64,000 bases of DNA, taken from Candidatus Omnitrophota bacterium (GTDB lineage Bacteria > Omnitrophota > Gorgyraeia > Zapsychrales > JAKLDJ01). A program made the position numbers and the translations under genes. The DNA lies in contig JAKLDJ010000005.1 of assembly GCA_022703585.1 (NCBI GenBank), positions 5,353 to 69,352 on the forward strand, written 5' to 3'. Positions 1 to 36,652 of this stretch are shown here, in pieces; position 1 is the first letter of the stretch, and every line of letters begins with the position of its first letter. The notes below the pieces were generated by a model. That model did no database searches and was not told the origin of the DNA. It saw only the letters and a program-made list of their open reading frames with translations.

Positions 1-3000
1 AGTCTTTACGGATTCCAGTTCGCGCCCCAAATCATCATATTGGCTGAAACGTGTCTTGTCGCTTAAGGAATATTCCGCCTGGGTCAAGCGGCCCTTGGAA
101 CCAGGGACAGCATCATCATCGTAGGTATAGTCAACGTTGAAATTGCCGCCGTCGTTTTTATTCGTGAGGCGGTTAAGGGCATCGTAGTGAAATTCCATGA
201 CCTGATTTTTGGCGTCTGTTTGCTGAGTAAGATTTCCGGCCGCATCATAACCGTATTGCCAAAAACCCATGTCCGGGTCATTCATGGACACCTTGCGCCC
301 CAAATAATCATAGGTAATGGTGGTGATATTGCCGTGGGCGTCTTGGGTTTGGGTCAAATTGCCCTCGGAATCATAAGCGTATAGCGTCGTAGCGTATAGC
401 GTATAGGAAGAAGCAGGATAATGCGGGCTGCGGCCATCGGTTCCGAAGTATTCTTCCTTTTTAATCAGACGGCCGTAAGCATCAGCGTAGGATTTTTGTT
501 TGTGTCCGTTTTCATCAATCGTTGTACTTGTCCAATCGTCGTAAATGGCAGTCACATAGGTTCCGTCAGAATTAGTGGTTTGAATCGCGCGGCCCATGGC
601 ATCATAGGTAATTGTTGCATGGGGGTTATTTGGGTTTATTGGGTCTATTGAGTTTATTGGGTTGGTTGAGAAAAACGGAAAATACTTTTTTACCGGCAGG
701 CCACGGGAATTATATTCCGTCTGGCCACCGACCGTAAACTCTCCCGGCGTCGCGGATTCGGACTTGGTTTGAATAAGCCGGCCCAAACCGTCATAAAATT
801 GCACCGAGTCAATGGTGCCGACCTGGCCACTTTTCTCTCGTTGGTGCGTCGTCACCATGGCATGATCGTCGCTAAACTGGTATTCCACAGTCGATGTAGG
901 ATATTCAATAGAATCCAGGGGCGAAACCGTGGCTACGACACGCCCAAACACGTCGTATGATTTTCGCCCCTTTTTGTTATTCGGATCGGTAGTACTCTTC
1001 AACTGGCCCCAAAGCCCATGAAAACCGTCACCGCTATCCAGCGGAACGCCGTTGACACCGTAATATTCGTTAACCGCTTGATGGTTGAGCGCATTGGTTA
1101 CGGCCAAAGGAAACATATGATAATCAGAATCATAATCAGTCGTGGTTACATGCTGGAGGGCATCGCTTGTCGAGATGAGATTTCCGTATTCATCGTATGC
1201 AAAACTCACTGTGGGGTTCACGTTTGAACCTGACCAGTCTGTCTTTTTTGTCAAAAAACCCTTCACAGGTAAATCGTCAATATTCTGGTGACCGTCATAA
1301 TAAAACCGGGACTGGCGAACCATTTCTCCGGAATGATTCTTAACCGTAACCTGCTTAGGCAAACCGTTAATCCAATTCGAATCATTACCGAGATACTCGG
1401 TTTCAACGCTACGGCTGTCGCTGGCAACGTCCTCCCCTGTATCCAGGTCCACTTCACCTAAGGAAACTGCTTTTGTGAGATTGCCGTTTTGCGGGGACTC
1501 CTCGTAGAAATACTGCTCCTGGGTTCTCTTGCCGGTTATATCGCCATCATAAATAAAATTATCTTTTTGCTGCAAGAAAACAAAATTAATACCCGGAGCA
1601 ATCTCCTGATAATCCCAAGAGTTGACGACCTTCCCGTAGAGATTTCCGTTCATATCATAGCTTTCCTGACGCTCGACCCTTCCTTTATAAATGTCGTCCT
1701 GGAGAAAGTAGGTGTTCGAATAATTACCCTCATCATCTTGTACGCGCACAAACCCGAACCCGCGGAATTCCCTCTCTTGTGTGTTCCAAAGGCCGTTGGC
1801 ATACACATAGTGAGTGATGTACGAATGCCCGAAACCGTCACTGAGTGTCGTTGTTTTAACGGTTTGTATCGGAAATGGCAGAAAATCATTTTGATAATGT
1901 GTGGAGGGTTCATATTCGATTGAGGTCATCGCCCCCGCGCCGTTATGTGCCTCAACCAGTAAGTCCGGAGCTTTGCCTTTATTGATATACATTTGGGGCG
2001 TATTTCCGTTCCAATGAATAATAAAATCCGCCATGCCGTCAGCATTGGCATCCAAAAGGCGCGTGCCATAATTCTTGAAATTTGCGCCTCCGGTCAAATC
2101 CCATCCCGAATCCCGTATCCAGCCGTGCCCGGTATTGATGAGCGTCACATGCTGGGTATCAGTGGCAATGATAAGATCGCTTAGGCCATCACCGTTGATA
2201 TCTGCGAATTGAGTAGAACCGTCGACTAAATCGCCGTAGCCAAAGGTATCTTCCCAGGAAGAACCCAGGCCCCCGGCCCAGCCGGCCCCGGTATTGATAT
2301 AGACCGCCGCGGTTCCGTCTTTTCGGTAAAAAATATCCAAGAGGCCGTCTCCATTTAAGTCGACCAAGGTTGAGCCTCTTTCAAAATCTGCGTAAACGCT
2401 AACCGGAGTATCCCAGGTAGAGTTTCTCTGCCAGCCCTTGCTGCCGCCTGGCATGGCATTTAAAAAAGTATAGTGGGATGAATATCCGGCATCTTCCTTG
2501 GAGCGAATGAAATCCTCATAACCATCGGCGTTAACATCAGCCAATACACTGCCCCAAAATTCATGATATCCATAGACGGGTTGGCCTCGCTCCAAAGTAA
2601 TCGGTAAAGGGTCATACCAGGGATCCTGGGGAGGATTTTGGCGATAGGGCATCATCCAGTCAGGATCATAAACCCAGCCGTTACTTTTATTACTGATATA
2701 AACTTCGTTGGAAACCTGTATCCCTCCCCAATAGGGATCCCGCTGAAAATACCGCACCAGGTCCACCCAGCCGTCCCCGTTGATATCCGCGACACGCACA
2801 CCCCATTCGCGGTCTATTTCCCCCGAGGTATTTTGAAACACTGCGAGGTTTCCGGGAAAATTCCAATCGCCTGATTGAACCCAAGCCTTATCTTTATTAT
2901 GTAAAAATGTTTTTCGTGTTTGAGGGCCGCCGTTATATTCATGATATTTCAAGATATCCGGATAGCCGTCCGCGTTAACGTCAGCGATTCTGACGCCCAA

Positions 3001-4197
3001 ATCCGCCCCTCGGCCTCCGCTCTGCTGTTCGGCAAATCGCGCGTCCGCAGGAATATCCCAGGAAGAATCCAATTCAAAACCTTTCGTACCGTCCTGGTAA
3101 GTAAATGTCGTCTCCGGCAATGCCGTAACCCCATCTGCACCGTACTGTCGGACTGATGTCAACAACGTCCGGCCGGTTACGCCGCTATAGCTATATCCTA
3201 AAACATAACGTCCTTGCAAAACCTCTCCGACATACGATGAGATTTGGGAGATTCTTTTGCGCGTTCCAACAAGAAAACGAGTCCGGTAAGACGACACCAA
3301 ATCATTTCTGTCTTCGAGGTCAAACCGGAGGCTGGCAAAAGGCTGCAGCCCCGTGGCGGAATTGCCGGTATAATCAATGCGCTGCGGATAAAGTTGCTGC
3401 TGGTCCTTAAGATACGTAACCGTCATATAATTACCGCTTAGATCCTCCACTCTGTCTAAACACCACTTAAAAATATGACTGCTGTCTGCCGGATCTGCCT
3501 GCCGCGAATCATCGCTCTGCCCAAAATAATATTTAACCCCTTTTTTATCGGTAATAACCCAGCCGCCGGACAATAATTCTATTTTCATAAATGCGCCTTC
3601 GATCTTTGTCCGGTAAAAACCAGACGCCGTGTCGTAAACCAATTCCTGCATTGAGCCGGCCTGCGTGAGCACAAAGGTATCCGAGGCATTATATTGGGGT
3701 GCGCCCTTTTTCGTCGAGCGCTGGATATTGCCAAGTTCCAGAATCCATCCCATGCCGAGCAAGCCGCTGGAACTCGCGGAGCTGTAAAAAAGATTGACGC
3801 TGGGCTGAATACCTGCCCGGCCCGCGGGCACAGCAATCGGGACCGACAAGGCAGCACTTCCGGTTGAAGAATCGACCTCGACACGGCTGGTTGAGGCAAA
3901 GAGAGCGCGAAAATCGATCGCCGCGTTCTGTGCTGAGGCCGGAATTACACCGGATTGCGAGCTCTCCGCAGCCTGACCTTCCTGAGAAACAGCATTATTA
4001 GAAGAAGATAGAACTTCTTCGGATGCCTGTTGCGAATCTCTGTCAGGATTAACAGTTTTTGTATGCGAATCAGGGCTTTCTTTTTGAATTAGTCCCGGGG
4101 GTTCTTCGGCGCACAGTACAGGCAGATGACAAAACGGAAAATTTAATAAGAATAACGAAAGAAATAGTCCGGATACAGAAAATATTCTTCGGCGCAT
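1..4197 (-). CDS. RHS/YD-repeat toxin-like protein (Tc-toxin TcB/TcC-like architecture), N-terminal ~1399 aa; C-terminus lies beyond window start
   Basis: Manual translation of the minus strand gives a continuous ORF from ATG at 4197 to the window edge. It has an N-terminal signal peptide (MRRRIFSVSGLFLSLFLL). A SpvB-like segment follows (PSVNLFYSSASSSGLLGMGWILELGNIQRSTKKGAPQY). Then come several FG-GAP/VCBS-like repeats (DVNADGYPD, DINGDGWVD, DLNGDGLLD, DINGDGLSD, DANADGMADF), then classic YD repeats (YDAMGRAIQTT, YDYLGRKV, YDALNRLT, YDDDAVPGSKGRLTQAEY). It is absent from the ORF track only because it lacks a stop within the window. Confidence 0.85.
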   Translation of the reverse strand, partial: MRRRIFSVSGLFLSLFLLNFPFCHLPVLCAEEPPGLIQKESPDSHTKTVNPDRDSQQASEEVLSSSNNAVSQEGQAAESSQSGVIPASAQNAAIDFRALFASTSRVEVDSSTGSAALSVPIAVPAGRAGIQPSVNLFYSSASSSGLLGMGWILELGNIQRSTKKGAPQYNASDTFVLTQAGSMQELVYDTASGFYRTKIEGAFMKIELLSGGWVITDKKGVKYYFGQSDDSRQADPADSSHIFKWCLDRVEDLSGNYMTVTYLKDQQQLYPQRIDYTGNSATGLQPFASLRFDLEDRNDLVSSYRTRFLVGTRKRISQISSYVGEVLQGRYVLGYSYSGVTGRTLLTSVRQYGADGVTALPETTFTYQDGTKGFELDSSWDIPADARFAEQQSGGRGADLGVRIADVNADGYPDILKYHEYNGGPQTRKTFLHNKDKAWVQSGDWNFPGNLAVFQNTSGEIDREWGVRVADINGDGWVDLVRYFQRDPYWGGIQVSNEVYISNKSNGWVYDPDWMMPYRQNPPQDPWYDPLPITLERGQPVYGYHEFWGSVLADVNADGYEDFIRSKEDAGYSSHYTFLNAMPGGSKGWQRNSTWDTPVSVYADFERGSTLVDLNGDGLLDIFYRKDGTAAVYINTGAGWAGGLGSSWEDTFGYGDLVDGSTQFADINGDGLSDLIIATDTQHVTLINTGHGWIRDSGWDLTGGANFKNYGTRLLDANADGMADFIIHWNGNTPQMYINKGKAPDLLVEAHNGAGAMTSIEYEPSTHYQNDFLPFPIQTVKTTTLSDGFGHSYITHYVYANGLWNTQEREFRGFGFVRVQDDEGNYSNTYFLQDDIYKGRVERQESYDMNGNLYGKVVNSWDYQEIAPGINFVFLQQKDNFIYDGDITGKRTQEQYFYEESPQNGNLTKAVSLGEVDLDTGEDVASDSRSVETEYLGNDSNWINGLPKQVTVKNHSGEMVRQSRFYYDGHQNIDDLPVKGFLTKKTDWSGSNVNPTVSFAYDEYGNLISTSDALQHVTTTDYDSDYHMFPLAVTNALNHQAVNEYYGVNGVPLDSGDGFHGLWGQLKSTTDPNNKKGRKSYDVFGRVVATVSPLDSIEYPTSTVEYQFSDDHAMVTTHQREKSGQVGTIDSVQFYDGLGRLIQTKSESATPGEFTVGGQTEYNSRGLPVKKYFPFFSTNPINSIDPINPNNPHATITYDAMGRAIQTTNSDGTYVTAIYDDWTSTTIDENGHKQKSYADAYGRLIKKEEYFGTDGRSPHYPASSYTLYATTLYAYDSEGNLTQTQDAHGNITTITYDYLGRKVSMNDPDMGFWQYGYDAAGNLTQQTDAKNQVMEFHYDALNRLTNKNDGGNFNVDYTYDDDAVPGSKGRLTQAEYSLSDKTRFSQYDDLGRELESVKT

Positions 4198-4310
4198 GAC
4201 CAAACCCTCTGTTTGAACTTTTGGGTTGAAATGGGCTTTTGTTTGCTTCGCCCAAGCGCTTCATGTGCGCTTTATCTGGGGACAGACCCCGCCATAACCA
4301 ACATAGGCTT

Positions 4311-5000
4311 AGGGACGCTCTTTTGGCGCTATTGAAGTCTGTCCCATCCTTCAGATACTGGGGACAGACTTCCGATCAACCGAAAGAGCGTCCCTGATCC
4401 CAATGAGCCCTGGAACATCCAGCGAATTTAAAAGCTCGTCATAAACACCCGATACTCTCAGTCGATAACTACTCCATTGATAATCTGATGCTGATTGAAC
4501 AATTTCGGCCCGTACGGGATTCTGCTCGATATACTCAATGCAACCCAGAAAATAGTCCTCCGAACTTATTGCCATACTTTTGAAACGTCCCTGCCATAGA
4601 TGGCCGCAGGTATGATGTCGGGCATTAAAATATAATGCGTAAGACTGATCCAATCCTTGCATAAATTTTGGTAGATCCCTGACGACACATGGTTTCACCA
4701 ATAAATGGACATGATTTGGCATCAGACAATAGCCAAATAGAAGAACTTTAAACTTCATCTTATATCTTCTCAGCAATCTCAGGTAAACCTCATAATCTTG
4801 GCTAACCTTAAATACATTTTGTTTCTGGTTACCCCTGGACATAATGTGATAGAAATTATTTTCGGGTAAAAATCGTGCAGTCCTCGGCATAACTTCTCCT
4901 CTGTATTCTTCAGGGACGCTCTTTTGGCGCTATTGAAGCCTGTCCCATCCTTCAGATACTAGGGACAGACTTCTGTTCAGCATAAAGAACGTCCCTGATA
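4311..5000 (-). mobile_element. IS200/IS605-like REP-RAYT unit: tyrosine transposase flanked by two ~88 bp near-identical structured repeats
   Basis: Near-identical direct repeats at 4311-4398 and 4912-5000 (AGGGACGCTCTTTTGGCGCTATTGAAG..CTGTCCCATCCTTCAGATACT.GGGACAGACTTC...AAGA.CGTCCCTGAT). Each contains nested palindromes (GGGACGCTCTTT/AAAGAGCGTCCC and GTCTGTCCC/GGGACAGAC). They bracket a Y1-HUH transposase gene. Confidence 0.7.
4351..4890 (-). CDS. REP-associated tyrosine transposase (RAYT) / IS200-family TnpA-like Y1 HUH transposase
   Basis: 179 aa. It has the HUH motif (NHVHLLV) and a downstream conserved Tyr region (QWSSYR), typical of the IS200/RAYT family. The 3' end of the ORF lies inside the flanking repeat. 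Confidence 0.7.
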   Translation of the reverse strand: MPRTARFLPENNFYHIMSRGNQKQNVFKVSQDYEVYLRLLRRYKMKFKVLLFGYCLMPNHVHLLVKPCVVRDLPKFMQGLDQSYALYFNARHHTCGHLWQGRFKSMAISSEDYFLGCIEYIEQNPVRAEIVQSASDYQWSSYRLRVSGVYDELLNSLDVPGLIGIRDALSVDRKSVPSI

Positions 5001-5014
5001 GAGATTTGGCATTT

Positions 5015-5290
5015 CTACGCACCCGCCCCGCTCTCATAACCTTCCAAAACACATTGCGTAATCTGCGCGCGGACATCATCTGACATACAGCGAATGGTGT
5101 CATACCATTTCTTGTCCTTGCCCTGCTCCTGCGGCATGGAGACAAAAAGTCCGTTGGGCCCCTCAATAATCTTAAGACCCCGGATCACCAACGCGTCGCC
5201 CACATTCATATCCACAAACGCCTTAATCCGGCCGCCGGTTGTTAATTTGTAAATTCTCGCCACCTTAAAACTCAAAGTCTGTTCTAACAT
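5015..5290 (-). CDS. spoVG: SpoVG family septation/regulatory protein
   Basis: 91 aa; the segment IRGLKIIEGPNGLFVSMPQEQGKDKKWYDTI is closely similar to the conserved SpoVG core (VIDGNNGLFVAMPS...). Confidence 0.75.
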   Translation of the reverse strand: MLEQTLSFKVARIYKLTTGGRIKAFVDMNVGDALVIRGLKIIEGPNGLFVSMPQEQGKDKKWYDTIRCMSDDVRAQITQCVLEGYESGAGA

Positions 5291-5348
5291 TGCCTTTTCC
5301 TTTCTTTTTTGTTTTTACTAATAGCTGCAGATTAATACGTTAACTGTT

Positions 5349-5633
5349 TTACTTTGCTGAATTCTTGCTTTTCTTGCTCGAGGCAACCTGTTTTGTGTCT
5401 TTGCTAACCGCCGATGATGTTTCCTGCTTAAAACATCTCCCGCACGGCTCCAGCCCCTCCTTAACCGCCCCTTCTTTATCAATTTTCTGAGTGTTCCGGT
5501 TTTGAATAAGACGGCAGTCTTCCTTGTGATATTTCTTTCCGTTCTCAGTCCGATAAACATCCTCGGCAAAAACAGTCACCGCCACGGATAAAAAAACCAC
5601 GCACAAACCTGCTGCAATTGCTTTCTTTACCAT
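5349..5633 (-). CDS. Small secreted hypothetical protein (signal peptide; CxxC-like CGRC), bracketed by a perfect 17-bp inverted repeat
   Basis: 94 aa with an N-terminal hydrophobic signal (MVKKAIAAGLCVVFLSVAVTVFA). It is flanked by TTTACTAATAGCTGCAG (5306-5322) and CTGCAGCTATTAGTAAA (5661-5677). Confidence 0.45.
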   Translation of the reverse strand: MVKKAIAAGLCVVFLSVAVTVFAEDVYRTENGKKYHKEDCRLIQNRNTQKIDKEGAVKEGLEPCGRCFKQETSSAVSKDTKQVASSKKSKNSAK

Positions 5634-5713
5634 CGCTCCCTACCTCCTTTTTTGGTTGGCCTGCAGCTATTAGTAAATTATTAGTCGCCTGGCACCAGTG
5701 ACCAGTCGCCAGT

Positions 5714-6067
5714 TTATAGCTTTTTAATAAGACTCAAAATCATCCGCATCTCATAAATTACAGAATCCACTAATGGTCTGCTATTAACTTCGGACAAATA
5801 CTGCCGTTTTCCTGAAAGAATAATCTGGGTTTCAAGCTCAGCGCAGGATCCCAAAGAAATATACAGAAACTGTGTATACTCCTTCGTGTGATGACGCACA
5901 AAACCCTCGGCAATATTCGACGGGATTGAAACGGCTGCCCGACGCATTTGAGTCGTTAAGATAAATAGCTCGCTTTTGGGATATTGATCAGTAAAAAAAT
6001 AGATTTTTTCAGCAATCTCTATTCCTTTTTGCCAAATTTTTAAATCTTTGTAATCCTTAACTTTCAT
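5714..6067 (-). CDS. Four-helix-bundle protein, Avd-like / 23S rRNA intervening-sequence protein family (TIGR02436/PF05635-like)
   Basis: 117 aa. It carries the family core LKIWQKGIEIAEKIY...QMRRAAVSIPSNIAEGF...FLYISLGSCAELETQII. It is flanked by inverted repeats at 5681-5713 and 6088-6117. Confidence 0.8.
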   Translation of the reverse strand: MKVKDYKDLKIWQKGIEIAEKIYFFTDQYPKSELFILTTQMRRAAVSIPSNIAEGFVRHHTKEYTQFLYISLGSCAELETQIILSGKRQYLSEVNSRPLVDSVIYEMRMILSLIKKL

Positions 6068-6084
6068 TGTTTTCCTTCCATTTT

Positions 6085-7680
6085 TTACTGGTCACTGGCA
6101 ACCGGCGACTGGCGACACACCTCAATTCTTCTCGAAAACTCCCCACCCGTAAACCCGTCAATCAAAGCCGTTAACTCCTCAACCCGCATTTCTTTATCCT
6201 CGCGCTCCTGGGTCCCAAGAGAGAGATCCCGGACAAGATCGGCCTGCAACCGGCGCCGTTCAAAATAAAGCCTCGTCACTTGGTCTAAAATGTCTTCCCT
6301 TAACTCAACCATCAATTTCGAGCGCGAATCAATAGACGTTTGTTCAGAGCTCCAAACCAATTCCGCTATATCCCATTTAAGGTTAACTCCCCAATCCTGA
6401 GGCCCAATAGCCGTCCGGTCATAAGTCGATCCCAGCGCCGTCGTCACCGTCTTATCAAAATCCAAACTGACCTCGGGCATCAAGGCCCTGGCCTGCGCCA
6501 ATCGCCTCCAATTCCGTATCTTATCGGCACCCACTTCCGCATACGCGATTGCCATTCTGTGAACCTCGCGAATAGACGGTTCATCCGCCCAATACGCATT
6601 CGCCGGACTTGTCATTGCCGCTACGCCGTCGGGCAACGTTTTCTTCGGCTTCATTAGAAAAATCCCTTTATCTGTCGCGGCATATAAATGATTTTCTTCA
6701 TCACACGCCAAAAAATTGACCTTACTTGTTTCCATCCCTCCATAGATATGTTCCCATCCGTCCTCCGTTTCTATGAAGACTCCTTTTTGCGTGCCCAAAA
6801 CAATCTCGCCTTCCCTTAAAACCGTCAAGGATGTCGCGCTTTCAAGCGGCAGGCCGTCGACATCAATCTCTTCCCAGAATTTTCCTTGGTTGGAGCTGTA
6901 AAAAATCCCTTTTGTTGTCGCCACATACAACTCAGATTTCCTTTTATTGGTCGCAACCAGGGAGAGAATTTGCTTTTTATAGATTGAGGCATCTTCTCCT
7001 TCAGTCTCTTGGGTCTCGGCGCCATTGCCGTTAAGCTCGCCTCCCATAACGCTAAAAATCTCCAAAATTTCCTGGCTCTTCGGGTCTATCCGGAAAATTT
7101 TGTTTTCTGTCGCCGCGTAAATATACGTTCCATCTTCAGCTAAAAAGGCGACGGCTTTACTGTTTAAATCACCTTGGGCCCTGCTCCAAACCGGGCCGTC
7201 AATGGTTTTGTAAAAAAGACCCCCGGCTGTTGCCAGATAAACCGTGTTTTCATCCTCAATAACCCACAGACAGCGGCGTTCACGGCTATCATTGGAGAAC
7301 AATATTCTTTTCCATGCCCCGCCGTCATTCGTGCTTAGAAACAGACCGGAATCGGTCGCGGCATAAATGACAGAATCCCTGACCGGGCTCGCATAAAGAT
7401 AATTAACTCTGCGGGAAGCCCCAGATGCCTGCAGAAGCGCTTGCGCCACGCTTCCTTTATATGGAGATAAAACCCGGTACGCCGACTTTGTCGTGCCGAC
7501 AAACATGCCCTGAGGGCGGCCCTTCGGGCCGCCCTCAGGCGCAAACGCCACACACGTCACCTCCGGCTCGGCAATACCCGACCCGATCTTTTCCCATTCA
7601 TAATGACTCCAGGCGAAATTCAGATTCAACACCCCCAGCACCAAAATCATCCCTACTTTAAGACCGCCATACTTATCCAT
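6085..7680 (-). CDS. Secreted BNR/Ycf48-like beta-propeller repeat protein with C-terminal coiled-coil
   Basis: 531 aa with an N-terminal signal-like segment. It has repeated motifs YAATDSGLFLSTNDGGAW, YAATENKIF and YAATDKGIF, typical of BNR/Ycf48-like repeats. Confidence 0.55.
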   Translation of the reverse strand: MDKYGGLKVGMILVLGVLNLNFAWSHYEWEKIGSGIAEPEVTCVAFAPEGGPKGRPQGMFVGTTKSAYRVLSPYKGSVAQALLQASGASRRVNYLYASPVRDSVIYAATDSGLFLSTNDGGAWKRILFSNDSRERRCLWVIEDENTVYLATAGGLFYKTIDGPVWSRAQGDLNSKAVAFLAEDGTYIYAATENKIFRIDPKSQEILEIFSVMGGELNGNGAETQETEGEDASIYKKQILSLVATNKRKSELYVATTKGIFYSSNQGKFWEEIDVDGLPLESATSLTVLREGEIVLGTQKGVFIETEDGWEHIYGGMETSKVNFLACDEENHLYAATDKGIFLMKPKKTLPDGVAAMTSPANAYWADEPSIREVHRMAIAYAEVGADKIRNWRRLAQARALMPEVSLDFDKTVTTALGSTYDRTAIGPQDWGVNLKWDIAELVWSSEQTSIDSRSKLMVELREDILDQVTRLYFERRRLQADLVRDLSLGTQEREDKEMRVEELTALIDGFTGGEFSRRIEVCRQSPVASDQ

Positions 7681-7951
7681 GTTCTTCGATCTCCCGGTAT
7701 ATTTTGTCCACGTTGATATTTTTTAAAGCTGTTGTAACCGCGTTTTTCATCTGCGGATTGTGCGCGCCGATAATCGAAACATACTTCTCAAGATATTCCA
7801 GCATCGCCTCCAACCCCAGGCGCAACCGCATTTCCATTAAAACACATAAGACCGTATACACCGCGACAATACTGTCTCTTGAAAAAATAAGATTTTCCGG
7901 CCTCGGCATATGCTCACTTCCAAAGTTCTTGTCGCAATTATTTTCTTCCAT
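7673..7951 (-). CDS. Hypothetical protein
   Basis: 92 aa ORF co-directional with the downstream gene. I recognise no motif. Confidence 0.3.
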   Translation of the reverse strand: MEENNCDKNFGSEHMPRPENLIFSRDSIVAVYTVLCVLMEMRLRLGLEAMLEYLEKYVSIIGAHNPQMKNAVTTALKNINVDKIYREIEEHG

Positions 7952-8120
7952 CTTTTTCTCCTATCTTCAACCGCTACAAGAATAACATCTGTTTGATTTT
8001 TCGTCAAGTTATATTTGATGTTATATCAATCCTGTAAGTATTGTAAATGCTTGTAGTAGAAAAGCTTACATATCGCATAAATCTTTTTAAAAAATTATTC
8101 AAATAAAAGTGAAATATCGT

Positions 8121-8152
8121 TGACAATTAATCAATTTATGCTACTCTATTCT
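8121..8152 (+). promoter_or_regulatory. Putative sigma70-type promoter for XRE-cupin regulator gene
   Basis: TTGACA at 8121-8126, followed at ~16-17 bp by a TA-rich -10-like hexamer (TATGCT/TACTCT), ~60 bp upstream of the ATG at 8210. Confidence 0.4.
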
Positions 8153-8209
8153 TGATGATTCTGAAAGAAAACAAGTCCATCTTAAAATAGCGAACAAAAG
8201 GAAAACTCC

Positions 8210-8761
8210 ATGCTCATCGGACAAAAACTAAAAGAATTGCGTTTGCAGGCAAAAATGTCTTTAACCGAACTCTCCGAGCAAAGTGGTGTTCAACTCGCCA
8301 CCTTAAGCCGCATGGAAAACTTAAAAATGACCGGCACGCTTGAATCCCACATCGCTATTACAAAAGCCCTGGGGGTGAGCTTAACAGATCTTTACAAAGA
8401 CATCGCAGTTGAGGAAAAAAGAATCGAAGTACGAAAATCGCAGACGCCCAACGATGTATTTGTCCATAGCGATAAATCATCCTACGAAATACTCACCGGA
8501 AAAGTCATGTCGAAGAAGATGATGCCGATCCTCCTTAAGATAGAGCCCGGAGGAAAAACAAACACCGAACAAAATGTTCCGGGAACCGAGAAATTCGTTT
8601 TTGTCCTGGAGGGCACTATCGAGATACATATTAAGGAAGAGACCTACCCCCTTTCAAAGCACAACACCCTTTATTTTGACGCAGCTTTACCGCATTATTT
8701 TGTGAATAAGGCAAAGGCTCCGGCACGAGTCATTTGCGTGATTACGCCGGTGGCGTTGTAG
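8210..8761 (+). CDS. XRE-family HTH transcriptional regulator with C-terminal cupin domain
   Basis: 183 aa. The N-terminal HTH_3-like segment is LKELRLQAKMSLTELSEQSGVQLATLSRMEN. The C-terminus is a cupin-like beta-rich domain. Confidence 0.7.
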   Translation: MLIGQKLKELRLQAKMSLTELSEQSGVQLATLSRMENLKMTGTLESHIAITKALGVSLTDLYKDIAVEEKRIEVRKSQTPNDVFVHSDKSSYEILTGKVMSKKMMPILLKIEPGGKTNTEQNVPGTEKFVFVLEGTIEIHIKEETYPLSKHNTLYFDAALPHYFVNKAKAPARVICVITPVAL

Positions 8762-8811
8762 GCAAATTTAAGGGTAGTACGGGTTGGAGGGGGCATTAAG
8801 GGTTAGTAGGG

Positions 8812-9225
8812 GTGAGACGGAACAACCATTGGCTCGGAGACACAACGGAAAAAATGGAAAAAGAACCGGGATATAAAAATCTCATCGTTTGGAAGAATAC
8901 ACGCACATTAAGAGGTCTCATTTACCAGATGTGCAAAGGGTTTCCTCAGGCAGAGATGAGACGTTCAAGCCAGATGAGAGATTCGGCGAGATCGGTCAAA
9001 CAGAATATTCAAGAAGGTTACGTAAAATCACTGCCTTCCTACATCAATCATCTCAATATTGCCATGGGTTCGCTGTCGGAATTGCGAGGCGACATCGACG
9101 ATTGTCTTGAAGATAGGTTGATTACCAAAGAAAATTTCTTGTCTATTAATGAATTGGCCGGAAAGACAGAATATCTTTTAAAACGGTTGATTCAATCATT
9201 GATTCGAAAGAGGGATAGTCGATGA
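8812..9225 (+). CDS. Four-helix-bundle protein, Avd-like / 23S rRNA IVS protein family; true start probably the internal Met near 8854
   Basis: It carries NLIVWKNTRTLRGLIYQMCKGFPQAEMRRSSQMRDSARSVKQNIQEGY...SLSELRG, matching the family pattern. The first ~14 codons of the annotated ORF lie inside the upstream inverted repeat. Confidence 0.7.
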   Translation: MRRNNHWLGDTTEKMEKEPGYKNLIVWKNTRTLRGLIYQMCKGFPQAEMRRSSQMRDSARSVKQNIQEGYVKSLPSYINHLNIAMGSLSELRGDIDDCLEDRLITKENFLSINELAGKTEYLLKRLIQSLIRKRDSR

Positions 9226-9271
9226 ATTTCAAACCCATACTAACCCCTACTATCCCATTTTACCCCCTTCT

Positions 9272-9311
9272 GCCCCCTTCTGCCCCCTTCTGCCCCCTTC
9301 TAACCCCTAAA
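9272..9311. repeat. Tandem decamer CCCCCTTCTG x4 inside the right inverted-repeat arm of the Avd cassette
   Basis: Direct reading: cccccttctgcccccttctgcccccttctgcccccttct. Confidence 0.9.
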
Positions 9312-9346
9312 CTTTTATCTCTCAAACCCATAGTCAAGGAGCCAGT

Positions 9347-9709
9347 ATGAAAAAACCAAAAGTCCTAATTTGCGATGATGAAGAGGGAATTCGCGAGTCT
9401 TTGAAGTTAATCCTAAGCGACCACTACGATCTCATATTAACCGAAAGCGGTGAGCAGTGCTTAGAGTGTATCGCGAACGCAAAAGATATCGGGCTCGTCC
9501 TTATCGATATCAAGATGCCCAAAGTAAGCGGCCTGGAGATTCTGCAGAAGATCAAGGAGAAACGCCCGGATCTAAAAGTTATCGTCGTCACCGGCTATAA
9601 AAGCGTCGAGACGGCAACCGAGGCGGTGAAGCTTGGTGCGGCGGGATATATTGTTAAGCCCTTCAAATCGAATGAAATACTCGCTGCGGTTCAAAATAAT
9701 ATAAAGTAA
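9347..9709 (+). CDS. Single-domain response regulator (CheY-like receiver)
   Basis: 120 aa. It has VLICDDEEGIRESL, the conserved Asp context LIDIKMPKVSG, and KVIVVTGY...GAAGYIVKPF. Confidence 0.85.
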   Translation: MKKPKVLICDDEEGIRESLKLILSDHYDLILTESGEQCLECIANAKDIGLVLIDIKMPKVSGLEILQKIKEKRPDLKVIVVTGYKSVETATEAVKLGAAGYIVKPFKSNEILAAVQNNIK

Positions 9710-9789
9710 TCGATTGGCTAACACTGAGGCCTGCTTTAAAAGGCCGAACGTGTGAAACCTTTTAAGTCACAAGAAATATTAAAGACGGT

Positions 9790-9990
9790 TAAATCACTTA
9801 TATAGAAACATAAGGTTATTGTGTTTATTGGGTTCCTTGAGTTTATAGGGTTCCCGTCTAAAACATTTTACTGCGCGTAATAACTCAATGAACCCAACCC
9901 AATGAGTTCAAATAACCCAAAGAACTCAATAAACCCAATAGCCCAATAAACTCAATGGACTCAACAAACCCAACAACCATCCAAAGACCA
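9790..9990. repeat. Cluster of short dispersed repeats of the AACCCAATAAAC/TCAAT family, both orientations
   Basis: GTTTATTGGGTT ... GTTTATAGGGTT ... AACCCAACCCAATGAGTTCAAATAACCCAAAGAACTCAATAAACCCAATAGCCCAATAAACTCAATGGACTCAACAAACCCAACAACC. The same family occurs at 600-660 and 42340-42460. Confidence 0.8.
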
Positions 9991-11675
9991 TGATTCACTT
10001 AAATCCGTTTGCGATCGCAAACCTTATTATCGCTATTACATATTTTCCGCTTTTCATACTTATTGCCATCAAAGGGAAAACAAGAATAGCAAGAGTCTAT
10101 TCCCTTCACATTCTCGCGATATGCCTCTGGGGTATCGGCGCTTTCCTGGGTGGCATAAACCAGAACCAAGCAATTTCGATTAATCTATGGAAATTTGCAT
10201 ATTCCGCAGTAATCTTTATACCCATTTTCTTTCTTCACTCTGTATTGATTTTAACAAAAAGAAATTCGAGATTCTTGATTACGCTAATATATATTCAAGC
10301 CATTTACTTTCTTTGGGAAGCCCAGAGCGGTGGCATGTTTTCTTCTGTAAGACTTGTTTTTAATTCATTCTATTACGTTAATGGAAAAATCATCTATCTT
10401 TACTCATTTATCTCTTGGGTAGTTACAGTTTCATTCGCTCACCTGCTACTTATTCAATATTATAAAACTAGCTATCCGGGACAAAAAGAACAAATTGCCT
10501 CTTTAATACTCGCAATCATAGGTTTCTTAGGCGGTGCCATGAACTTCTTGCCAGGCTTCAATATAAATATCTACCCACACGGGAATCTTCTTGTGCCCAT
10601 CCATTCGATTATCGTTACCTACGCAATTCTAAAACACCAATTATTAGATATCATCGTCGTAATCAAGAAAAGTCTAATTTATTCAATTCTAATCACCTCG
10701 ATTACGGTCACTTACTTAATTTTAGTTATTTTATCAGAGAGACTACTCCAGGGAACCATCGGCTATCAATCACTCCTCGTAAGTGTTGGCATCGCTTTCT
10801 TAATCGGACTTGTATTTAGTCCCCTGCGAAATAAAATTCAATATTTCGTTGATAAATACTTCTTTAAAGGCACCCAAGCCCAAATCGCAGAGGAAAATGA
10901 ACGCCTGCGACAAGAAGTTGCCCAGGCTGAGAAGCTTAAAACCGTCGCCACCTTGGCCAGCGGCATGGCTCACGAAATAAAAAATCCGCTGACGGCGATA
11001 AAAACTTTCGTCGAATACCTGCCCGAGCGAAAAGACAACCCCGAATTTCTCGATAAATTCACACGGATCGTCGGAGCAGAAGTTGACAGGATTGACGGCC
11101 TGGTTCACCAATTGCTGGAATTTGCCAAGCCCTCTCCTCTTGCCTTAAAAGAAACTAATATCCATCAATTAATAGACGAAACCTTAAGCCTTCTTAATAA
11201 TCAACTTGTTCAGCATAAAATTGATTTAATCCGAGACTATAATGCCGACCGCGACCAGACATTAAATATTGACCCCAATCAAATACGTCAGGCGCTTTTG
11301 AATATTTTTCTAAATGCGATCGAGGCGATGAAATACGGCGGGACGCTTCGCGTGCAGACTGAAGACTACAGACTAAAGACTAAAGACCAAAGCTCGCAGA
11401 AGTCTTTGGTCTCTGGTCTTCAGTCTGGGGTCCATAAAGGCTTCTTAAAGATAACAATTTCCGACACCGGCTCCGGCATACACCCTAAGGACCTGCCTCA
11501 CGTTTTCGATCCCTTCTTCTCAAAAAAAGATCACGGCACCGGCTTAGGGTTAGCCATTACGCACGGGATTATTCAGGAGCATGGGGGGAAAATTAAAGTT
11601 GAGAGTGAGTTGGGGAAAGGAACAGAAGCTATTCTAGAGTTGCCGATAATTGGCAGTGAAGAAAATAAGGGATAG
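9990..11675 (+). CDS. Sensor histidine kinase with N-terminal 7TM sensor domain (HisKA_7TM-like), HisKA and HATPase_c
   Basis: 561 aa. Multiple TM helices carry the motif YAILKHQLLDI shared with the two other kinases. H-box MAHEIKNPLTAI; N/G boxes NIFLNAIEAM, ISDTGSGI, GTGLGL. Confidence 0.85.
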   Translation: MIHLNPFAIANLIIAITYFPLFILIAIKGKTRIARVYSLHILAICLWGIGAFLGGINQNQAISINLWKFAYSAVIFIPIFFLHSVLILTKRNSRFLITLIYIQAIYFLWEAQSGGMFSSVRLVFNSFYYVNGKIIYLYSFISWVVTVSFAHLLLIQYYKTSYPGQKEQIASLILAIIGFLGGAMNFLPGFNINIYPHGNLLVPIHSIIVTYAILKHQLLDIIVVIKKSLIYSILITSITVTYLILVILSERLLQGTIGYQSLLVSVGIAFLIGLVFSPLRNKIQYFVDKYFFKGTQAQIAEENERLRQEVAQAEKLKTVATLASGMAHEIKNPLTAIKTFVEYLPERKDNPEFLDKFTRIVGAEVDRIDGLVHQLLEFAKPSPLALKETNIHQLIDETLSLLNNQLVQHKIDLIRDYNADRDQTLNIDPNQIRQALLNIFLNAIEAMKYGGTLRVQTEDYRLKTKDQSSQKSLVSGLQSGVHKGFLKITISDTGSGIHPKDLPHVFDPFFSKKDHGTGLGLAITHGIIQEHGGKIKVESELGKGTEAILELPIIGSEENKG

Positions 11676-11760
11676 CAGGGGCTAGTAGGGGGCAGTACGG
11701 GATAGTAGGGGTTTAAGAAATCCCTTCCTAACCCCTCCTATCCCTTTCTACCCCTTCCCA
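11676..11760. repeat. Cargo-less inverted-repeat pair related to the 8762-9260 Avd-cassette ends
   Basis: GCTAGTAGGGGGCAGTACGGGATAGTAGGGGTT ... AACCCCTCCTATCCC. The arms are adjacent with no gene between them. The sequence resembles GGGTAGTACGGG..GGGTTAGTAGGGG at 8772-8816. Confidence 0.6.
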
Positions 11761-11782
11761 CCCCTTTGATAACAATACTCAC

Positions 11783-12961
11783 TTAAATCCTCCCCGCCTC
11801 ACGCAACTCCACAATCGCCCTTACAGCAAGCGGATTAAACTGTAGCCCCGAATTTCTTTTAATCTCTTCCATCGCCACTTCCTTCGGTAACGCCGCCCGG
11901 TAAGGCCGATCGGTGGTCATGGCATCAAAGGTATCCGCGACCGCGATAATGGCGGCGGCAATCGGAATATCCTCAGCTTTTAGCCCATACGGATAACCCT
12001 TACCGTCGTAGCGCTCGTGATGATATCTGACACCGTCTAGGGCATCCTTAAACTCAGCGATATGCTTTAATATCTCAAGGCCCCGTTGGGGGTGTTGCTT
12101 CATAATAGTGTATTCCTCATCGGTTAATTTCCCCGCCTTCCTCAAGATGATCTCGGGGATACCGATTTTTCCGATATCATGCAAAAGGGCGGCATTCTGC
12201 AGGTTCTCAAAAAACTTATGCGGAAAACGGGCGGTCTGATTGGCATTCATCTGATGGGCGATTGCTAAAGAAAATTGTGTCACCCGCTCAGTATGGCCCC
12301 GGGTATATTCGTCTTTGGCTTCAATAGCCGAGGTAAGCGCTAAGGTTGTCGAAATAAACAGCTGACGGTTACGCTCGGCCTCTTTCTTTAAGTCCTCAAT
12401 AAGCTGCGCGTTTTTAATCGCCATTGCCGTATCCGAGGCCAGTGCCGAGAAAAAGTCCAACTCCTCCTGATCAAAACCCGTTCCGTCACTTTTTTCTCCC
12501 AGCAGCAAAAGCGCCAAAAGCGTATCCCTAAAATACGCCGGCACGCAGGCAACAGCATTAAACATATGCATCTGCTCGTTAACCTTGTGCAAAAGATCCC
12601 GAACATCCTCGCCGTTACTAATAATGCTCTCCTGCCAAATCATGGTCTGGATATCCGTCGACATCAGCGCTGAATGGTTGGGCGGTAAATTCTTATATTT
12701 CACATGGGAAAATAACTTGATCAACGGACTGTCTTTGCCAAAACGCGCAAAACCCGCAGGGATCTTAACCCCCATCTCTCCGTGCGAAATCGAGACAACA
12801 TAGCCGTCCTTATGAGGGTCATAGAGAATCATCGCCGCGTGCTTAATCTGGACTTTACGCACAATCATGCGGACGATAAGCTTGATCAGCGTCTTGGGGT
12901 CATGAATAAGGATCATGCCCTTGCTGGCGCCTTCGAGTTCTTTTTTGTAGTTCAGTTGCAT
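11783..12961 (-). CDS. GAF domain-containing HD-GYP phosphodiesterase (cyclic-di-GMP)
   Basis: 392 aa. The C-terminal HD-GYP signatures are LLHDIGKIGIP and HHERYDGKGYPYGL. The N-terminal half is GAF-like. Confidence 0.8.
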   Translation of the reverse strand: MQLNYKKELEGASKGMILIHDPKTLIKLIVRMIVRKVQIKHAAMILYDPHKDGYVVSISHGEMGVKIPAGFARFGKDSPLIKLFSHVKYKNLPPNHSALMSTDIQTMIWQESIISNGEDVRDLLHKVNEQMHMFNAVACVPAYFRDTLLALLLLGEKSDGTGFDQEELDFFSALASDTAMAIKNAQLIEDLKKEAERNRQLFISTTLALTSAIEAKDEYTRGHTERVTQFSLAIAHQMNANQTARFPHKFFENLQNAALLHDIGKIGIPEIILRKAGKLTDEEYTIMKQHPQRGLEILKHIAEFKDALDGVRYHHERYDGKGYPYGLKAEDIPIAAAIIAVADTFDAMTTDRPYRAALPKEVAMEEIKRNSGLQFNPLAVRAIVELREAGRI

Positions 12962-13022
12962 GGAATTTTACCGTTAATCAACACAGATTAACACAAATTG
13001 AAACAGATTTTCACAGATAAAA

Positions 13023-13415
13023 TCACTCGCATCGATCATAGATGCGCCGTCTGATATCTATAGATTCATTGCCGAAGTTAACCAAATAGCCTAGCTTGTA
13101 CTCTGTGCCGCTTAAGTAATAGAAAAGCTGTTTTTCAAATACTTTCGGAAGATTCAGCAAGGATTTAATTTCAACAATAATTTTGTCATCGATGACAAAA
13201 TCCGGCTCATAAACACCTACATGTTTCCCGTGAAATCGGATTTTAATTCTCGGCTTATCAACATATTTTATCCCACGTTCTTCAAAGCATATTTTGAGAG
13301 ATTCGTGATAAATTTGCTCCTTATGTGCCGGACCGAGCTCGTTATAAACATCATAAAAACACCCAACCAGCTTATACGACAATTCCTTATGCGGAAAATG
13401 CTCTACTTTTGCCAT
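13023..13415 (-). CDS. GxxExxY family protein (PD-(D/E)XK-like, TIGR04256-like)
   Basis: 130 aa. It has the GxxExxY signature YNELGPAHKEQIYHESL followed by EPDFVIDDKIIVEIK (a PD-ExK-like DxxxxEIK). It is flanked by long inverted repeats at 12973-13018 and 13420-13464. Confidence 0.65.
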   Translation of the reverse strand: MAKVEHFPHKELSYKLVGCFYDVYNELGPAHKEQIYHESLKICFEERGIKYVDKPRIKIRFHGKHVGVYEPDFVIDDKIIVEIKSLLNLPKVFEKQLFYYLSGTEYKLGYLVNFGNESIDIRRRIYDRCE

Positions 13416-13492
13416 AGTAATTATCTGCGAAAATCTGTTTAGATCTGTGAATATCTGTGTTAGTTAACGCTTCAATTTAAAACTTAACACAC

Positions 13493-13852
13493 TCAGCGTT
13501 TTAGTTCAGCAAGGACAACCTTCTCCAATTCCTCCAAAACCAGCGGCTTGTGGACATATCCAAGAACACCCAAATCATTGGCTTCCTTGATCGATTCTCC
13601 GTTTTCGACGCCCGTGACCATGATTACCTTAACGGAATTACTTTTGGCGCGCAAATCCCTCAAAACCTCGAGGCCGGTCATCTCTTCCATACGCACATCT
13701 AAAAGCACTAGGTCGGGTTTTTCCTTTTCGATGATCCCAATCGCCTCTTTGCCGCCGGAGGCGGTCAGGACATCAATATTGCGCTTCCTAAAGAAATTCT
13801 TGGCAAATTCACGGATATCAACCTCATCATCGACAATAAGCAATTTAGACAT
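13493..13852 (-). CDS. Single-domain response regulator (CheY-like receiver)
   Basis: 119 aa; it has LLIVDDEVDIREF, LLDVRMEEMTG and KVIMVTGV...GYVHKPL. Confidence 0.85.
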   Translation of the reverse strand: MSKLLIVDDEVDIREFAKNFFRKRNIDVLTASGGKEAIGIIEKEKPDLVLLDVRMEEMTGLEVLRDLRAKSNSVKVIMVTGVENGESIKEANDLGVLGYVHKPLVLEELEKVVLAELKR

Positions 13853-13882
13853 GTTTATTCCTTAGGGTATAGGGGTTAGGGT

Positions 13883-14266
13883 TTAGCGTTTAGAGTCCAT
13901 CTTGTTCTGTAATCGCAAAATCATGGCACTCAGCATTTTCAGTATTTCTGTAAGTAAATTATCAATCCGTTGATAATCTGCAGCAACAATAAATTCCAGA
14001 CGCTTTGCTATAATCAATTGCGTCTCAAGCTCAGAGGCAGAACCTTTTGCGATATATAAAAATTGAATATATTCTTTTCGATGATTGCGCTGATAGCCTT
14101 CCGCAATATTTGAAGATATCGCAACAGCTGAACGACGCATTTGCGAAACAAGACCGTATAGTTCATCATGTGGCAATTGCCGCGTTAGCCTATACACATC
14201 TAAGACTAATTCGACCGATTTCTGCCATACAATTAAATCTTTATGCGACTGAATTTTCTCGCTCAT
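13883..14266 (-). CDS. Four-helix-bundle protein, Avd-like / 23S rRNA IVS protein family
   Basis: 127 aa. It carries LIVWQKSVELVLDVYRLTRQLPHDELYGLVSQMRRSAVAISSNIAEGYQRNHRKEYIQFLYIAKGSASELETQLIIA. It is flanked by inverted repeats at 13861-13882 and 14286-14314. Confidence 0.85.
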   Translation of the reverse strand: MSEKIQSHKDLIVWQKSVELVLDVYRLTRQLPHDELYGLVSQMRRSAVAISSNIAEGYQRNHRKEYIQFLYIAKGSASELETQLIIAKRLEFIVAADYQRIDNLLTEILKMLSAMILRLQNKMDSKR

Positions 14267-16497: not shown

Positions 16498-17601
16498 TTA
16501 AATTTTACTATTTTTTAGATAAATAGATTTGATATTTTGCAAATCTTCTTCTGAGTAAGCATAATTACCGAAGTAAAACGGAGATGTTTTGAATCCGTGC
16601 TTCAGAGCAATGCTTTCAATTTCATGAATTTTATCCTCCGTAATACTGCCTCGACCAATCGAGTAATTCTCTATCTTTTCTTCTAAGGCTAATAACATTG
16701 CTTCTGCAAGGCAACCAAAAACGATACCATCAGGAAATAAAGAGTGCCACTTCTCACCAATTATCGATTCGAAATTTGGTAATTTTGCTTTACCTCCATC
16801 AAAAATTAAGACGTCGTTCCTAAAATTATTAATCTTCTTCGGAATTGCAGGAGGAATGGAAACGTCACAAAAGATGCTTCCAGGCTTTAGGATTGCAACA
16901 TCAAACAATGGTATGGCCGAACTTGTAACACTTAAAATTACATCTCCGTCCGAAATCGCTTTGCTTGGATTTCGTTCAATTCTTACATCTTTCTTACTTG
17001 ACAAAGAAACTACGAGTTTGTCAAGTTTGTCACGACTACGGGCCACAAGAACTATTCTCGTAAATATTCTAGAAAGAATTTTTGTACAGATTGAACCTAT
17101 GTCACCAGTTGCACCAAGCACAACAAGTTTTGCGTTATTAGTATTAAAACCAAGTATATTTATCGCTTTTAAAACTGAGTCAACGGCAAGAAAAGCTGTA
17201 TATGTGTTTCCTGAAGTTACTGCAACATCAACATTCTTTGATATAGCTTCCCCTTCATTGCCAATAACCGAAGTAAAAGCAGCTAATCCAATAATATCGG
17301 CCTTAAGCAGTTTCGCTTTCGCGCAACACTTGATAATTTTATTTAATATTGTCGCTTCATTAAAATAATAAAACTGCTCAGGTAATAACGGGCACATGAT
17401 GGCATGTCCTTCAGTTACACTACCAGCATAAGAAGTTACGTTCCTGGCAGATATTACCACATGGGGAGGAAGGCGGGGAATTAACCTCTTTATCCATATT
17501 AATGGAATAAATTTTAAAACTACGGAAAAAAAAGGATAATATATAAAGTTTTCACGCGAATCAAGACCAGTGAAATGAGTTATCATGGCAAAACGTTTCA
17601 T
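16498..17601 (-). CDS. Long-chain acyl-ACP reductase (AAR)-like NAD(P)-dependent reductase
   Basis: 367 aa. It shows collinear similarity to cyanobacterial AAR: AMITHFTGLD vs GLIGHLTSLE; FTSVIGNEGEAI vs FTSIIFENFDL; TSGNTYTAF vs TTGNTHTAY; the Rossmann segment VLGATGDIGSICTKIL vs VVGATGDIGSAVCRWL; CLAEAMLLALEE vs CFAEAMLLEFEG. Confidence 0.65.
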   Translation of the reverse strand: MKRFAMITHFTGLDSRENFIYYPFFSVVLKFIPLIWIKRLIPRLPPHVVISARNVTSYAGSVTEGHAIMCPLLPEQFYYFNEATILNKIIKCCAKAKLLKADIIGLAAFTSVIGNEGEAISKNVDVAVTSGNTYTAFLAVDSVLKAINILGFNTNNAKLVVLGATGDIGSICTKILSRIFTRIVLVARSRDKLDKLVVSLSSKKDVRIERNPSKAISDGDVILSVTSSAIPLFDVAILKPGSIFCDVSIPPAIPKKINNFRNDVLIFDGGKAKLPNFESIIGEKWHSLFPDGIVFGCLAEAMLLALEEKIENYSIGRGSITEDKIHEIESIALKHGFKTSPFYFGNYAYSEEDLQNIKSIYLKNSKI

Positions 17602-33122: not shown

Positions 33123-33132
33123 TAGAAATTAA

Positions 33133-33246: not shown

Positions 33247-33364
33247 AATAGCTTTGAATATTGGCTATTGCGCGCCCAGCTTTCGCTGGGCGCGCACTAG
33301 CACGACAATTACGTCATTGAAAGATAAACTTCAACCAAAAAAATCATAATAATGTATAAGATGA

Positions 33365-36337
<2,973 letters not shown>

Positions 36338-36565: not shown

Positions 36566-36568
36566 TTC

Positions 36569-36648: not shown

Positions 36649-36652
36649 AAAA

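Follow-up and report, generated by a model that had tools for sequence, protein, structure and literature searches.

A Sec signal peptide-bearing Rhs protein of an Omnitrophota bacterium is probably a polymorphic toxin with a TcB-TcC-like cocoon and a lipoprotein immunity partner

The Rhs toxin gene is intact

The 64,000-nucleotide (nt) stretch of DNA analysed here (hereafter the window) comes from a Candidatus Omnitrophota bacterium (assembly GCA_022703585.1, contig JAKLDJ010000005.1, positions 5,353 to 69,352 of the forward strand) and opens within a very large gene that encodes an Rhs/YD-repeat protein on the minus strand. The product of this gene is probably a Sec-exported, single-chain Rhs polymorphic toxin, which is built like a fused TcB-TcC cocoon, ends in a variable tip and is accompanied by a lipoprotein immunity protein. 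The gene is intact and belongs to a complete polymorphic-toxin locus; it is neither a fragment nor a pseudogene.

The reading frame is open on the minus strand from position 4260 to base 1. The 5' part of the gene (1..4197, codons 1-1399 of 2359) begins with an ATG at 4197, with the sequence GAGGG 8 nt upstream and an in-frame TTG two codons before the ATG. The 1,399 residues encoded in the window are 100% identical to the corresponding part of a public protein of 2,359 residues (P0001). An earlier examination of the window alone (the original prediction) had described a giant secreted RHS/YD-repeat protein with SpvB-like and FG-GAP-like N-terminal modules, running on past coordinate 1. The first description is supported by the Pfam matches given below, and the missing part was recovered, intact, from contigs identical to the window: positions 1-14197 are identical to positions 14197-1 of one such contig (L001), and likewise to a second (L002). 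Beyond base 1, at L001 14198-17431, follow the other 2,883 nt, the stop codon and the gene of the immunity candidate. No early stop or frameshift is present there, and 17 public contigs carry a call of the same 2,359-residue product. The Rhs cocoon has a mass of ~250 kDa, and the GC content of its gene displays no clear foreign signature.

Composition of the shell

The module order that had been proposed from the translation (signal peptide, SpvB-like region, DxNxDGxxD loops, YD repeats) is right, as six loops are present and the Pfam domains follow one another in that order; all coordinates given for them are on the minus strand. Residues 1-30 (4108..4197; MRRRIFSVSGLFLSLFLLNFPFCHLPVLCA), recognised by a hydrophobicity heuristic, look like a Sec signal peptide, with an RRR n-region and a hydrophobic core (Kyte-Doolittle, KD, 1.9). 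This is the sole strongly hydrophobic segment among the first 2,050 residues, and 76 of the 93 long homologues also carry a hydrophobic segment at the N-terminus. A Ser/Gln/Glu-rich linker read from the translation (residues 31-110; 3868..4107), which has no Pfam match and is probably disordered, leads to the SpvB/TcB N-terminal domain (residues 111-270; 3388..3867; Pfam PF03534, E 6.4e-29), for which YenB residues 38-118 and SpvB (6p0x) are matched in the PDB.

The FG-GAP β-propeller region spans 1918..2991 (Pfam FG-GAP_3, PF13517, E 6.9e-16; FG-GAP, PF01839, E 4.8e-11). A search for the motif D-x-[ND]-x-[DN]-G-x-x-D places the six calcium loops at residues 406-414 (2956-2982), 471-479 (2761-2787), 554-562 (2512-2538), 613-621 (2335-2361), 666-674 (2176-2202) and 716-724 (2026-2052). 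The TcdB_toxin_midN domain follows (residues 712-838; 1684..2064; PF12256, E 1.2e-23; PDB match to TcdB1 617-795). The first part of the YD/RHS-repeat shell then occupies residues ~880-1399 (1..1560), with four RHS_repeat matches and a DUF6443 match (646-846) in Pfam and TIGR01643 (YD_repeat_2x) in NCBIfam; the RHS_repeat E values are 3.5e-25 for the N-terminal and 3.4e-16 for the C-terminal part of the protein. In the cultured bacterium Desulfospira joergensenii DSM 10085 (L025, carrier open reading frame (ORF) 2154-8450), the propeller consists of seven near-identical tandem copies of ~55 residues (SSFDNINLDMWGAVYQNPKI.AGDYNGDGKTDILYIIERTDGYYDWRLRLSNG), which look like recently amplified blades.

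Past base 1 of the window come more YD repeats, a Laminin_G_3 domain, further YD repeats, the Rhs core and a tip of 305 residues. The Laminin_G_3 (concanavalin-A-like lectin) domain is inserted in the shell at residues ~1499-1648 (Pfam, E 1e-20); it had been overlooked in the original prediction, the rest of whose shell architecture is supported. The insert is found in some homologues only. Four of them (P0019, P0020, P0023 and P0040) and the main Rhs gene of a syntenic locus in a groundwater Omnitrophota genome (L004) have ~17-20 residues at this position, and the remaining homologues have unrelated or larger inserts. When the protein was searched against the sequences in the PDB, the best matches were TcdB2-TccC3 fusions (E ~1e-41), followed by TcdB1, YenB, TccC2, YenC2, Rhs proteins of type VI secretion systems (T6SS; Tse5 and Tse15), SGS1/SGS4 and teneurin-like proteins. 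Together with the Pfam domains, these matches bear out the suggestion of a Tc-toxin B/C or teneurin-like shell.

The Rhs-associated core (TIGR03696, E 5e-25) covers residues 1974-2054. Position by position, "GARYYNPALGRFISPD...NNPVNRIDVDGH" of this core aligns to "GYRYYQPWIGRWLSSD...NNPVTLLDPDGL" of TccC3, and D2023 and D2050 coincide with two TccC3 aspartates. In TccC3, D651 and D674 are critical for auto-cleavage, and where His, Arg or Lys stands at P-1, there is a preference for Asp at P-3 (PMC7861908). Ahead of the expected cut the present protein reads D-V-D-G-H from P-5 to P-1, in agreement with that preference. The core is therefore predicted, from this alignment, to cut after H2054 and to leave a cargo of 305 residues (2055-2359); the variable regions of TcC proteins are typically 201-400 residues long (PMC7861908). 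The core, the tip and an adjacent small gene, all of which the original prediction expected upstream of the window, were found there. Two Omnitrophota carrier homologues (P0008 and P0013) have precomputed hits to PF07591, PF14890 and PF05203, which we take to be Hint/intein-type domains, and carriers of this type may use a second, different self-cleaving module.

The tip is exchanged between carriers

A variable toxin domain had been expected at the C-terminus, and the 305-residue tip is indeed absent from the closer shell homologues. Among 120 listed homologues, 86 have a recognisable core followed by 170-350 residues. The full tip is common to just one of the 85 other core-containing homologues listed (P0035), a more remote one by its shell (51% identity in the tip versus 40% in the shell); those nearest in the shell (P0002, P0005 and others) bear different tips. 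A profile built on the conserved C-terminal half of the tip and searched against 1.84 billion representatives recovered 580 clusters at 50% identity (E <= 0.001), in which the tip always stands at the extreme C-terminus. With the same profile 56 loci were found in species-representative genomes, from taxa that include Omnitrophota, Nitrospirota, Gamma- and Betaproteobacteria, Desulfospira and Acidobacteriota. Most of the loci encode Rhs carriers of ~2,000-2,800 residues that have both YD repeats and a core; two-partner secretion (TPS)/Fil_haemagg carriers bear the tip in Variovorax fucosicus and Guyparkeria sp. TX1. Because it is swapped among shell homologues and is common to different delivery scaffolds, the tip is, on the evidence of its distribution, a polymorphic toxin module. 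As a pointer to CdiA carriers, the JGI name 'filamentous hemagglutinin' on short tip fragments was set aside, as several of these begin with Rhs-core remnants; the real TPS/filamentous haemagglutinin (FHA) carriers were confirmed separately.

The two halves of the tip differ in character. Residues 2055-2210 are 43% Gly+Ala, with 28 overlapping [GAS]xxx[GAS] motifs and only six charged residues in ~155, and Gly-zipper Pfam families match 5 of 73 members of the tip family. Residues ~2211-2359 contain the near-invariant motifs SGxSxGxxGDGFKLGGGR, SPLGGxQGGxG, Y-PGS, VExxAGPHDxLN, YDxxGN and NVxxATP. An AlphaFold2 model based on the single sequence was unusable (predicted local distance difference test, pLDDT, 42.6), and a model based on a 73-sequence alignment was used in its place. 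In this model tip residues 100-290 are confident (ten-residue block means of pLDDT 84-97; predicted template modelling score, pTM, 0.69), and the predicted fold consists mainly of long helices and a small hairpin. Many otherwise unrelated Omnitrophota tips open, within the first ~40 residues past the core, with a [KS]W[FWS]xKFWK amphipathic motif, followed by Gly/Ala-rich hydrophobic segments. This common start suggests a membrane-insertion module placed ahead of variable C-terminal domains.

A lipoprotein gene follows the tip

An ORF of 101 codons begins ~45 nt past the Rhs stop codon and encodes a signal peptide with a lipobox-like cysteine. The protein has no match in Pfam, NCBIfam or the PDB. 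In an iterated hidden Markov model search of ORFs, members of the same lipoprotein family were found downstream of the tip at 21 of 57 loci, across phyla, and at 17 of these the lipoprotein gene lies no more than ~45 nt from the stop codon or overlaps it by 4 nt. Three cysteines, the one in the lipobox and two more, do not vary among 23 lipoprotein sequences, which fits a disulfide-bonded periplasmic protein. In the syntenic L004 locus the main Rhs gene is ~45% identical in the shell and has a different tip; the locus also holds two orphan tips of the present family, each with a lipoprotein homologue downstream (47% and 41% identity; E 1e-33 and 7e-26).

Since a lipoprotein homologue follows the tip at these 21 loci across phyla, the two have the pattern of a toxin-immunity pair, in which the lipoprotein is predicted to protect. 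The expectation that an immunity gene usually comes after the toxin domain is thus in keeping with the adjacent small gene, which co-occurs with this tip type across phyla. Many tip loci without this lipoprotein have other downstream ORFs of ~190-250 residues with a signal peptide or lipobox. Downstream of the locus in the present genome no further tip-type ORF was called or seen, and a 344-residue ORF there begins with a hydrophobic, signal-like N-terminus and not with a core remnant. Covariation of the immunity gene with P0035 was sought and failed; a 20-residue, remnant-like match was all that lies downstream of it. At another locus (L005, 8001-9640) an orphan tip (P0124) adjoins tyrosine integrase and resolvase genes and is followed by an unrelated lipoprotein of 186 residues; it may be a cassette borne by a mobile element, with a different type of immunity.

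Delivery and proposed mode of action

No gene for TcA, a T6SS, PAAR/VgrG or a TpsB partner, and no tcA-type domain, was found in the 64-kb window or in the next 10 kb, to which the search was limited, and residues 1-1399 have no Pfam match to an N-terminal PAAR, prePAAR or VgrG-binding module. Because no such genes lie nearby and the N-terminus resembles a signal peptide, the Rhs toxin is, judging from its sequence and surroundings, neither a conventional Tc subunit nor a T6SS effector. The Tc-toxin analogy therefore stands for the BC part and does not extend to export and delivery, as a signal peptide is present and a nearby tcA is absent.

In the proposed mode of action the core would cleave after H2054 and the shell would store the cargo. 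A glycan on the surface of the target cell would be bound by the lectin domain and possibly also by the propeller. No TcA would be needed for delivery. The Gly/Ala-rich helices would insert into the target cytoplasmic membrane from the periplasmic side, and the conserved C-terminal half would then do the damage, by membrane depolarisation or by enzymatic attack on a membrane-proximal substrate. The periplasmic lipoprotein would protect the producer and its kin. As to activity, the tip could be a pore or ionophore, by analogy with other glycine-zipper toxins, or it could act as a membrane-held enzyme. Given that the partner lipoprotein looks soluble and that the tip has invariant E/H/D residues, we lean slightly towards an active domain exposed to the periplasm. 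A lipid-II-cleaving toxin of the lipocone/TelC type is not supported, as the tip has no Pfam hit to it and TelC is not in the Foldseek PDB output; moreover, the conserved polar residues of the tip come in the order D, E, then H-D, versus H, E, D in lipocones. Lipocone toxins are known to have lipoprotein or transmembrane immunity proteins (PMC12419801).

Several points weigh against a Sec-exported polymorphic toxin with lipoprotein immunity. Sec reaches only the periplasm of what is presumably a diderm cell, and secretion genes for crossing the outer membrane were not found nearby (window and 10 kb). That the protein is cleaved, how it is exported, what it targets and what it does are predictions, and so is the outward-facing placement of the lectin domain. 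The immunity family is found at only 21 of the 57 loci, and no intact lipoprotein gene follows P0035, the full carrier whose tip is closest to this one. The tip has no Pfam match, no match among PDB sequences except a marginal one to SGS4 (E 0.098) and no significant fold in Foldseek searches of the PDB (best E 3) or BFVD (best E 0.055); in these searches it resembles neither a characterised pore former nor a characterised enzyme.

The tip family and its lipoprotein partner are parts without a description in Pfam, NCBIfam or the PDB, within a kind of system that is itself well known, and literature searches returned no account of this carrier family in Omnitrophota. It is conceivable, and put forward tentatively, that the tip represents an undescribed type of toxin, in which glycine-zipper helices are joined to a conserved domain of a fold unmatched in the PDB and BFVD, which is neutralised by a periplasmic disulfide-containing lipoprotein, and which is delivered in Omnitrophota by a TcA-free, Sec-exported BC cocoon with a lectin receptor-binding domain of its own. 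Both families are unannotated, the former with ~580 clusters in many phyla and on two kinds of carrier, and if the tip proves toxic a new membrane-targeting activity among interbacterial toxins is possible. In Omnitrophota and other small-celled lineages, BC-type cocoons that combine a signal peptide with a built-in lectin domain are common, and they bear on how these organisms attack or hold other cells and on how Tc-like shells work without TcA.

Comparison with known systems

The present protein shares with the Tc BC cocoons (TcdB2-TccC3 of Photorhabdus, YenB-YenC2 of Yersinia entomophaga) the SpvB domain, propeller, mid-N domain, YD shell, two-Asp core and a cargo of 200-400 residues. Unlike them, it occurs naturally as one polypeptide, has a Sec signal peptide and a Laminin_G_3 insert, has no tcA nearby and carries a cargo paired to an immunity-type lipoprotein.

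In architecture the nearest precedent is mosquito SGS1. In this protein a Tc-like shell is closed by a propeller, carbohydrate-binding domains are inserted in the YD-repeat sequence, and an aspartyl-protease site is followed by ~230-300 residues of predicted membrane helices stored in the shell (PMC9935623). SGS1/SGS4 and the present protein alike have a shell with a lectin insert and a core followed by a helical region, and the phmmer match does not stop at the core but continues into the helices. However, SGS1 is a eukaryotic protein of 3,364 residues without a classical signal peptide and with Tox-SGS at its end, whereas the conserved C-terminal half of the present tip has no Pfam match at all.

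For the handing over of a membrane-active fragment from an Rhs shell to a target membrane, the nearest precedent in function is Tse5 (RhsP1) of Pseudomonas aeruginosa. Its Rhs cocoon encapsulates a pore-forming C-terminal fragment that is freed by the core aspartyl protease (PMC10684867). Shell and core are similar in the two proteins (E 2e-16); Tse5, however, is delivered by a T6SS, whereas the present protein has a signal peptide, no PAAR/VgrG-type Pfam match and no T6SS genes nearby.

A further parallel is with CdiA-CT/CdiI, since the same tip occurs in Variovorax and Guyparkeria on TPS/Fil_haemagg carriers that are followed by small exported ORFs; here, in contrast, the carrier is an Rhs protein and the immunity candidate a soluble-looking lipoprotein. 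In the ionophore toxins of contact-dependent inhibition (CDI), the hydrophobic helical domain has a putative glycine zipper (PMC11630599). The tip resembles these and other membrane-depolarising glycine-zipper toxins (Tse5-CT, EsxX-CT) in its hydrophobic, zipper-rich helical half, whereas in the PDB and BFVD searches it matched no characterised member in sequence or fold; depolarisation is predicted by analogy only. Gram-positive toxins of the WapA type are Sec-dependent YD-repeat polymorphic toxins with a downstream immunity gene. WapA is without the SpvB, FG-GAP propeller and TcdB mid-N modules, and the producer here belongs to a presumably diderm phylum.

Alternative explanations

The alternative that survives best, though an unlikely one, keeps the same machine and assigns it mainly to use on other species, namely the prey or host bacteria or archaea of predatory or parasitic Omnitrophota; the lipoprotein would then do no more than prevent self-intoxication during export. 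A preprint links giant Omnitrophota proteins to predation (bioRxiv 10.1101/2023.11.21.568195). The carrier family is abundant in Omnitrophota, two other genomes each have two homologues on one contig (P0020 with P0023; P0012 with P0037), and Sec export and the lectin domain fit surface display. Use between species is not separated by sequence from use within a species, however, and orphan cassettes, like tip swapping, classically mark competition between kin.

It is quite improbable that the protein is a surface adhesin or attachment device of the teneurin/SGS1 kind and not a toxin, with the lectin domain and propeller binding a host cell and the hydrophobic C-terminus either anchoring the protein or inserting into a partner membrane so as to hold the small Omnitrophota cell on its host. 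The lectin domain inserted in the shell would suit this role, as would the hydrophobic helical cargo, which resembles the predicted transmembrane helices of SGS1 and has a weak sequence match to that region of SGS4/SGS1. Related carriers occur in small-celled lineages (Patescibacteria and a Woesearchaeota metagenome-assembled genome), and a catalytic fold was not recognised by Foldseek in the PDB or BFVD. The tip, however, is swapped among carriers and is common to TPS/FHA carriers. A simple anchor would not be expected to occur in orphan cassettes and be tightly coupled to a dedicated small lipoprotein gene, sometimes with a 4-nt overlap; the tip family is also present in free-living Proteobacteria and Desulfobacterota.

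Least probable of all is a genuine Tc-toxin BC subunit whose propeller docks on a TcA encoded elsewhere in the genome and which injects its cargo into eukaryotic cells: the order of SpvB, propeller, TcdB mid-N and Rhs modules is that of TcB-TcC, TcdB2-TccC3 is the best solved match, natural B-C fusion genes have been reported (PMC7861908) and the TcB propeller is the TcA-binding element (PMC9935623), yet the protein has a Sec signal peptide, most homologues share a hydrophobic N-terminal segment, a tcA-like gene is missing from the window and the next 10 kb, the same tip is found on TPS/FHA carriers, and a tip tied to a periplasmic lipoprotein, with orphan tip-plus-lipoprotein cassettes, is the signature of antibacterial polymorphic toxins. 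For one well-studied Tc toxin, release by cell lysis has been described (PMC10847048).

Repeats and neighbouring genes

Two peptides in the part of the shell encoded in the window had been taken for low-complexity insertions, at 361-420 and 606-650. Both peptides exist: YTLYATTLYAY (residues 1265-1275) is encoded at 373-405 on the minus strand, and TNPINSIDPINPNNP (residues 1178-1192) at 622-666 on the same strand, ~16 nt away from where it had been placed. In a MAFFT alignment with 17 full-length homologues (~40-50% identity) both are free of gaps, and the residues mostly kept are TLYATTxYxYDxxGNL at the first site and TN-PxxSxDxIxxxxPH at the second. Because they align without gaps and are largely conserved in these homologues, the peptides are not insertions; the first is part of a canonical YD repeat and the second a shell loop of conserved length. 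A tandem DNA repeat under YTLYATTLYAY was recovered by Tandem Repeats Finder (TRF; 376-406, period 7), but it is weak (score 46), as is the periodicity at 630-670 (period 9/18, score 54). Tandem repeats of like score are frequent in the window (35 rows at a score of at least 40).

The 9-mer RACYCAATR occurs 16 times in the window versus 4.1 expected, a number reached in 0 of 100 shuffles, and it clusters at three places. Three tandem copies at 637-663, on the minus strand and within the coding sequence, encode PINSIDPIN in the Rhs gene. The two other clusters (9826-9957 and 42361-42429) are intergenic arrays, in both of which the left part is inverted and the right part forward.

The neighbouring genes comprise regulators, housekeeping genes, an rRNA operon and two transposase-like genes. 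The latter are Y1 (IS200-like) transposase genes that flank the Rhs-immunity unit, and their best-scoring model is the repetitive extragenic palindromic (REP)-associated tyrosine transposase. One lies upstream of the Rhs gene at 4351-4890 (minus strand), with repeats at 4912-4999 and 4311-4398; the other lies downstream, at L001 17509-18114, with repeats at 17447-17474, 18118-18145, 19282-19312 and 19424-19454. Each transposase gene has a palindromic repeat of its own on both sides, which gives a REPtron-like arrangement. The two genes share only 35% identity, and a syntenic counterpart of the downstream one exists in the distant L004 (43% identity). A composite transposon around the Rhs unit is unlikely, given the low identity of the two transposases and the synteny of the downstream one in a distant relative.

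Within ~16 kb the window also holds four genes for 23S_rRNA_IVP/bAvd-like four-helix bundles (5714-6067, 8812-9225, 13883-14266 and 21506-21925), and a reverse transcriptase was not seen near them. The window further contains a complete rRNA operon (16S, two tRNAs, 23S and 5S), at 33131-38624 on the minus strand. In another assembly (GCA_035390605.1) parts of the window are found on two contigs, DAOOUB010000005.1 and DAOOUB010000002.1, which probably meet at the rRNA operon.

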